This document shows positions 1-28 of a DNA stretch of 904 nucleotides, one piece after another; positions within the stretch are counted from its first letter, which is position 1, and each line of letters begins with the position of its first letter. This DNA is from Escherichia coli (GTDB lineage Bacteria; Pseudomonadota; Gammaproteobacteria; Enterobacterales; Enterobacteriaceae): the NCBI RefSeq assembly GCF_003334335.1, contig NZ_QOWQ01000140.1. One strand, written 5' to 3'. A model generated the notes under the pieces. That model did not search any database, was not told the origin of the DNA, and worked only from the letters and a program-made list of their open reading frames with translations. The position numbers and the translations under genes were made by a program.

Positions 1-28
1 TGTAGTGGTCAAGTAATATTGGCCACGG
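1..28. repeat. Right terminal inverted repeat (IRR) of the IS3-family element; may extend to about 36 bp
   Basis: The window starts with TGTAGTGGTCAAGTAATATTGGCCACGG. IS3-family ends begin 5'-TG, and the TGnAGTGG…TGGCCAC pattern resembles IS911 inverted repeats from memory. The transposase stop codon (11..9) lies inside it, as is common in this family. The partner repeat is not in the window, so the extent cannot be confirmed. Confidence 0.55.
7..12 (-). promoter_or_regulatory. Outward-facing -35-like hexamer TTGACC inside the terminal repeat (candidate junction or hybrid promoter half-site)
   Basis: The reverse complement of 7..12 (ggtcaa) is TTGACC, one mismatch from the sigma70 -35 consensus TTGACA, six bases from the element tip and pointing out of the element. 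In IS911 and relatives a -35 in the right repeat pairs with a -10 in the left repeat when the ends are joined in the circular intermediate. No partner -10 is visible here. Confidence 0.4.

Follow-up and report, generated by a model that had tools for sequence, protein, structure and literature searches.

The question posed by this locus, a 904-nucleotide stretch of Escherichia coli DNA (hereafter the window, with positions counted from its first base), is whether it begins exactly at the tip of an insertion sequence, and what role can be assigned to an outward-reading -35 hexamer that lies close to that tip. Window bases 1-28 read TGTAGTGGTCAAGTAATATTGGCCACGG, which the preliminary description, made from the letters alone, had taken for an IS911-type terminal repeat carrying half of a promoter. 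Two uses of this half-promoter had been put forward there: the formation of a junction promoter in the circular transposition intermediate, or of a hybrid promoter with a -10 that happens to lie in the DNA next to the element.

Base 1 of the window is the terminus of an insertion sequence

We compared copies of the window sequence in different genomic contexts. In five loci with unrelated flanks, whose neighbours are a prophage head-tail gene, melB, ypjA, tssF and the tra region of the F plasmid, the sequences were identical inward of base 1 and unrelated outward of it, so that the homology stops exactly at this base. Twelve further E. coli loci brought the number to 17 distinct left flanks, all diverging at base 1, and the inclusion of copies from viral contigs and of ISEc31-type copies sharing this tip raised the count to 42 distinct flanks. 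In addition, a direct target duplication of 3 bp was present around 20 of the 27 complete copies. Base 1 is the true terminus of the element, as the preliminary description had proposed, and the target-site duplication that it had suggested looking for at both ends is in place. The opposite reading, in which position 1 is a false terminus and the resemblance to an insertion sequence end is coincidental or internal, is contradicted by the loss of homology in so many distinct contexts, by the duplications and by a partner repeat at the expected distance; we give it a vanishingly small chance.

This partner repeat lies beyond position 904. In a full copy (L002), the two repeat arms occupy 1501-1526 and 2733-2758; they are 26 nt long, 77% complementary (20/26) and 1206 nt apart, and the far end of the element reads ...GGTGGCCAAATTTAGTGTGCCACTACA. 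The right terminal inverted repeat (IRR) thus covers window positions 1..26 on the minus strand with its tip at base 1, an assignment based on the inverted-repeat partner, the divergence of the flanks and the match to the IRR of IS911. The terminal repeat described earlier at 1-28 is therefore real, with a partner identical at 20 of 26 positions, but it spans 1-26 only, as bases 27 and 28 are unpaired and fall outside it. Two findings that would have placed the terminus elsewhere, namely a left end without an inverted-repeat match and homology running on past position 1, were both looked for, and neither was encountered.

Two blocks stand out within the repeat. The terminal block TGTAGTGG (1..8) is identical in the left repeat (IRL) and the IRR and has the 5'-TG...CA-3' tips of the IS3 family, while the subterminal block TTGGCCAC (19..26) is also common to IRL and IRR; the (T)GGCCAC within it was kept in both repeats of all 23 distinct inverted-repeat pairs that we collected (see below). 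Footprinting of IS911 has distinguished two domains in its ends, a terminal one for cleavage and a subterminal one for binding (PMC3299598; PMC2909936). By analogy, bases 1-8 would correspond to the region of cleavage and strand transfer, and bases 19-26 are likely the block bound by the N-terminal part of the OrfAB transposase.

The element is an IS911-like member of the IS3 family related to ISEc31

The only long reading frame in the 904-base window is orfB, an ORF on the minus strand (9..755) that is open further upstream and terminates at a TGA at 11..9. The orfB frame (12..904, minus strand), which extends past the window, encodes the catalytic portion of OrfAB, the transposase, including its rve/DDE integrase core. 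Its product scored 268.7 bits against the NCBIfam model NF033516 'IS3 family transposase' (cutoff 160) and matched the Pfam domain rve (PF00665, 3.4e-26) as well as rve_3, rve_2 and HTH_21. The 3' end of orfA (875..904, minus strand, with a TAG stop at 877..875) overlaps the orfB frame and corresponds to the ORF at 2375..2722 of the full copy L002. An A6G frameshift motif (A AAA AAG) is found a short way beyond the window, near element coordinate 925; the nearby sequence around coordinate 916 is ...GGTAGCCTTTTTTAAT (reverse complement ATTAAAAAAGGCTACC). Consistent with this organisation, RefSeq annotates the gene of the window as a joined CDS, 'IS3 family transposase, programmed frameshift' (WP_085968792.1).

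These data carry the features by which IS3-family elements are recognised. Full copies, together with the joined RefSeq CDS, show overlapping orfA and orfB with a programmed -1 frameshift; NF033516 and Pfam rve identify a DDE transposase with an rve core; the terminal inverted repeats are imperfect (26 nt, 20/26 identical) and end in TGTAGTGG tips of the 5'-TG...CA-3' type; and the 3-bp duplication (20/27 complete copies) as well as the length of 1258 bp, measured between the ends located in full copies at E. coli loci, agree with the 3-4 bp duplications and the length of about 1.2-1.5 kb typical of the family. One copy deviates from this length: the copy at L014 701-1963 has 1263 bp, 5 bp above the usual size, and is annotated as frameshifted, still with a 3-bp duplication (GAA); this copy is inactivated.

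We next placed the element among its relatives. The published 36-nt IRR oligonucleotide of IS911 is TGAAGTGGTCAACAAAAACTGGCCACCGAGTTAGAG (PMC2909936), and the window is identical to it at 21 of the first 26 positions and 27 of all 36; TGGTCAA and GGCCAC match throughout. This bears out the earlier view of an IS911-type repeat, as the TG.AGTGG tip and the GGCCAC block are found in both. IS911, known from Shigella dysenteriae and E. coli, is the model element in experimental work on copy-out/paste-in transposition and on the junction promoter (pjunc). Its IRR shares with that of the window the TG.AGTGG tip, the outward TTGACC at positions 7-12, the internal orfB TGA and GGCCAC at 21-26. Both elements are about 1.25 kb long, duplicate 3 bp of their target and have orfA and orfB linked by a frameshift; moreover, the IRL of an IS911-like copy with the exact published IRR (L090) has the same TGGCACACT as the element of the window. 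Nevertheless, compared with a copy having the exact published IRR, the whole element shows only 62.5% nucleotide identity and 57.4% OrfB amino acid identity; both of its repeats have T at position 3 where IS911 has A, and IRR positions 13-19 differ. With 62.5% nucleotide and 57% OrfB amino acid identity, far from near-identity, the element is not IS911 itself.

A much closer relative is ISEc31 (a name given by PGAP, e.g. at locus L006 of E. coli O157:H7 F8952), with 92.5% nucleotide identity over 1261 aligned columns and 92.3% amino acid identity in the OrfB frame. The two elements have the same tips, the same -35 and the same length class (1258-1261 bp), and their IRRs are one base apart (T19C); the IRL hexamer, however, is CACAGT in ISEc31 and CACACT in the element of the window. 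By ISfinder convention, isoforms share more than about 95% nucleotide identity. At 92.5%, the element is a close relative of ISEc31 rather than an isoform of it, and PGAP names its transposase WP_085968792.1 only 'IS3 family transposase'. ISEc52, an IS911-group element of E. coli (L008), has the same IRR layout of -35 and tip and a 3-bp duplication (CTT), but its nucleotide identity is 62.9% and its IRL hexamer is TTTACT; the OrfB amino acid sequences are not comparable, as the orfB frame is broken in L008.

Taken together, window bases 1-26 are the IRR of an IS911-like, ISEc31-related insertion sequence of the IS3 family in E. coli. This element is abundant: the window was matched in 2278 of 5426 complete E. 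coli genomes (2509 records, 881 of them at 99% identity or more) and in 481 plasmids, some of them from Enterobacter, Klebsiella, Citrobacter and Salmonella. A search of the window against Rfam at E ≤ 1 gave no match, and a search of a phage collection gave one partial match with no curated insertion sequence name. The right end of the element, with which the window begins, is an ordinary and well-described feature of the IS911 group, already known as such; the present analysis defines to the base where this very common E. coli insertion sequence ends on its right side and otherwise adds little beyond annotation.

The outward -35 hexamer overlaps the orfB stop codon

A direct reading of the minus strand (12..7) gives TTGACC at window positions 7..12, which agrees with the -35 consensus TTGACA at 5 of 6 positions and is followed by the 6 bp ACTACA up to the tip, exactly as previously described. 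The hexamer occurs once in the 904-base window, where 0.47 occurrences are expected, and at least one was found in 80 of 200 shuffled sequences. A lone TTGACC is thus within chance and proves nothing by itself; what counts is its position and its conservation in relatives.

The orfB stop TGA (9..11, minus strand), read directly from the ORF at 9..755, lies inside the hexamer and forms its bases 2-4. A TGA stop at 9-11 nt from the tip was also seen in ISEc31, ISEc52 and IS911-like copies, that is, in all four element types examined. The six bases 7-12 would thus serve coding, end structure and, by analogy with IS911, a promoter. At one locus (L005, 1363-1512), RefSeq has a short 'TrbD' CDS that starts at the TTG of TTGACC (window 10-12, minus strand) inside the IRR; this CDS probably reflects either an ORF fusion that arose when the element inserted or an artefact of annotation.

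Left and right repeats carry different hexamers in the register of a putative split promoter

To compare the two ends across relatives, we combined an OrfB scan of viral contigs (80 loci, 57-100% amino acid identity) with the E. coli loci and located the inverted repeats by a motif-anchored search, which yielded 23 distinct IRL/IRR pairs. The repeat adjoining the 3' end of orfB had TTGACC reading outward at positions 7-12 in all 23 pairs, IS911 included, while TTGACC was found in none of the 23 left repeats. At positions 6-14, the IRLs instead had TGG followed by CACACT, CACAGT, CATAGT, TTTACT or AATACT (23/23 pairs). These hexamers vary in sequence; a T is constant at hexamer position 6, and TG always lies one base upstream. 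When the two ends of each pair were joined in silico by a 3-bp spacer, the IRL hexamer started exactly 17 bp after the -35 in the 23 pairs.

For the element of the window, the in silico junction reads TTGACC-ACTACA-NNN-TGTAGTGG-CACACT, with 17 bp between TTGACC and CACACT and a TGg before CACACT. This is the layout of an IS911-type junction promoter, in which the IRR supplies the -35 and the IRL, joined to it by the 3-bp spacer, supplies a -10 at a distance of about 17 bp. At the positions of -35, TG and -10, this junction is identical to that of the IS911-like copy L090. Since the IRL must also be recognised by the transposase and yet differs at exactly these bases, end recognition alone does not explain the IRR hexamer. 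These results show that all of the IS911/ISEc31/ISEc52 group has kept the IS911-type split-promoter layout in register.

The right-end hexamer as the probable half of a junction promoter

In IS911, an outward -35 lies in the IRR and a -10 in the IRL; upon circularisation, a spacer of 3-4 bp joins these half promoters into a strong transient promoter, which drives the synthesis of transposase for the integration step and is destroyed by insertion (PMC9330008; PMC7780238; PMC12095673). The size of the circle spacer is similar to that of the target duplication (PMC3299598). The same principle, with the -35 in one end and the -10 in the other, assembled only at a circle or dimer junction, is found in IS2, IS30, IS256 and ISCth4, although these belong to other families or subgroups and have other spacers (1 bp in IS2, 5-6 bp in ISCth4).

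On this model, the IRR of the window's element would have two tasks. As a transposon end, it would be bound by the OrfAB transposase at the GGCCAC block and be cleaved and joined at the TGTAGTGG tip during copy-out/paste-in transposition. In the copied-out circle, IRR and IRL would abut with a 3-bp spacer between them, and the abutted ends would assemble the split promoter as TTGACC, 17 bp and (TGg)CACACT. The resulting pjunc would boost the expression of orfA and orfAB, an effect restricted to the lifetime of an integration-competent intermediate; insertion would abolish the promoter. The formation of circles, their 3-bp spacer and the activity of the promoter are predicted here for the window's element by analogy with IS911. 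Considering the repeat and the promoter as one explanation, we regard it as very likely that window bases 7-12 represent the -35 half of a circle-junction promoter. The proposal made in the preliminary description, that the half-promoter can form a junction promoter, is thus in keeping with the published IS911 mechanism and with the IRR/IRL asymmetry of the 23 relatives.

The assignment of CACACT as the -10 follows from the 17-bp spacing. CACACT is a poor -10, with 3 of 6 consensus positions, and a tool that scans by simple consensus criteria would not accept the junction; it is solely the TGn motif and the precedent of IS911 that would argue for a strong junction promoter. A head-to-tail junction of the type IRR-3 bp-IRL was found in none of the 5426 complete E. 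coli genomes, as is expected for a transient intermediate. The four best matches in this search were not circle or dimer junctions; they consisted of the IRR beside the inverted repeat of another element (L101, L102).

We also weighed the possibility that TTGACC has no promoter role and is kept for the orfB stop and for the bases that the transposase requires at the right end, for example in an asymmetry of donor and recipient ends. The TGA stop inside the hexamer in 4/4 element types examined fits this possibility, and part of the conservation of TTGACC could indeed be a coding constraint because the stop lies within it; likewise, one TTGACC per 904 bases is within chance, and in IS2 the donor and recipient roles are set by the asymmetry of the ends (PMC3299598). 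However, a stop codon fixes three bases rather than six and could sit elsewhere. Furthermore, the -10-like hexamer of the IRL stands after a TG in the exact 17-bp register in 23/23 pairs, even though its sequence varies, and IS911, with an identical -35 (and identical IRL hexamer positions in L090), has a published functional junction promoter. We consider a hexamer kept for these other purposes alone very unlikely.

The outward hexamer and the flanking DNA

Another conceivable use of the hexamer is in integrated copies, where the outward -35 could combine with a chance -10 in the host flank to form a hybrid promoter that switches on a neighbouring gene. The geometry would allow this: with the -35 (a 5/6 match) only 6 bp from the tip, flank positions 11-18 would offer the proper distance for a -10. 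In addition, hybrid promoters are documented in several insertion sequence families, and the ends of IS3 elements are enriched in proto-promoters (PMC12095673; PMC9330008). We therefore surveyed the 42 distinct flanks for a usable -10, defined as a match to TATAAT of at least 5/6, or of 4/6 including A2 and T6, at 16-18 bp from TTGACC, with other offsets in the same 42 flanks as the control. Such a -10 was found in 1 of the 42 flanks, compared with 4.6% (23/504) in the control, and thus without enrichment; the single case, an ISEc31-type copy (L045), has AATATT at a spacing of 16 bp. A consensus scan of a full copy and its flanks for promoters and terminators gave no sigma-70 match and so showed no hybrid promoter there, although such a scan is uninformative for a split promoter.

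The orientation of the insertions points in the same direction. Among 12 intragenic insertions (flanks of L001-L020), 9 disrupted genes converge on the IRR, so that an outward transcript would be antisense to the gene fragment. The transposase is likewise antisense to the disrupted gene in these 9 of 12 insertions, a bias that is not significant (binomial p about 0.15). Overall, the hybrid promoter suggested in the preliminary description is possible in a site-dependent manner, as L045 illustrates, but a usable -10 is no more frequent than background, and most disrupted genes face the IRR. Such promoters are possible as occasional accidents of the IRR end, not systematic and not its role: the ready-made -35 could activate a neighbour at an occasional site, which, to judge from the surveyed flanks, would concern few sites (about 2-5%) and not be under selection. 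As an explanation of the hexamer, the hybrid promoter is very unlikely, and for the genome from which the window comes, we consider it highly improbable that TTGACC lies 16-18 bp from a -10-like hexamer of the flank and drives the neighbouring gene in this way. The junction promoter remains the preferred reading of bases 7-12.

At L006 1348-1512, an ISEc31 copy in E. coli O157:H7 F8952, a YeeU-type antitoxin gene has lost its N-terminus to the insertion, and reading outward from the IRR leads to a CbtA toxin gene downstream; there is no -10 at 16-18 bp at this site.

Insertions next to and into the element

Some copies had themselves received, or lay beside, other insertion sequences. In L016 and L020, the window's element is cut at coordinate 916, 12 nt past window base 904, by IS30 ends (TGTAGATTCAAT...), and the cut adjoins the A6G frameshift motif. 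In L007 and L101, IS30 interrupts the homologous position of IS911 copies, which share only 62% identity with the window's element, with ...AAGAGCGCGGT on one side of the cut and TGTAGATTCAATCTG on the other. Either a hot spot for IS30 shared by these elements or recombination between elements would account for this coincidence.

At L101 1629-1667, exactly 3 bp (ACA) separate the IRR of the element from the tip of the IRR of an IS911 copy, in a tail-to-tail arrangement, and on a plasmid (L102, 1629-1670) the element's IRR abuts an inverted-repeat-like remnant (TGCAGTGGATCACAAAATCAGGACACC). Both cases would fit insertion beside sequences similar to the ends of the element itself.
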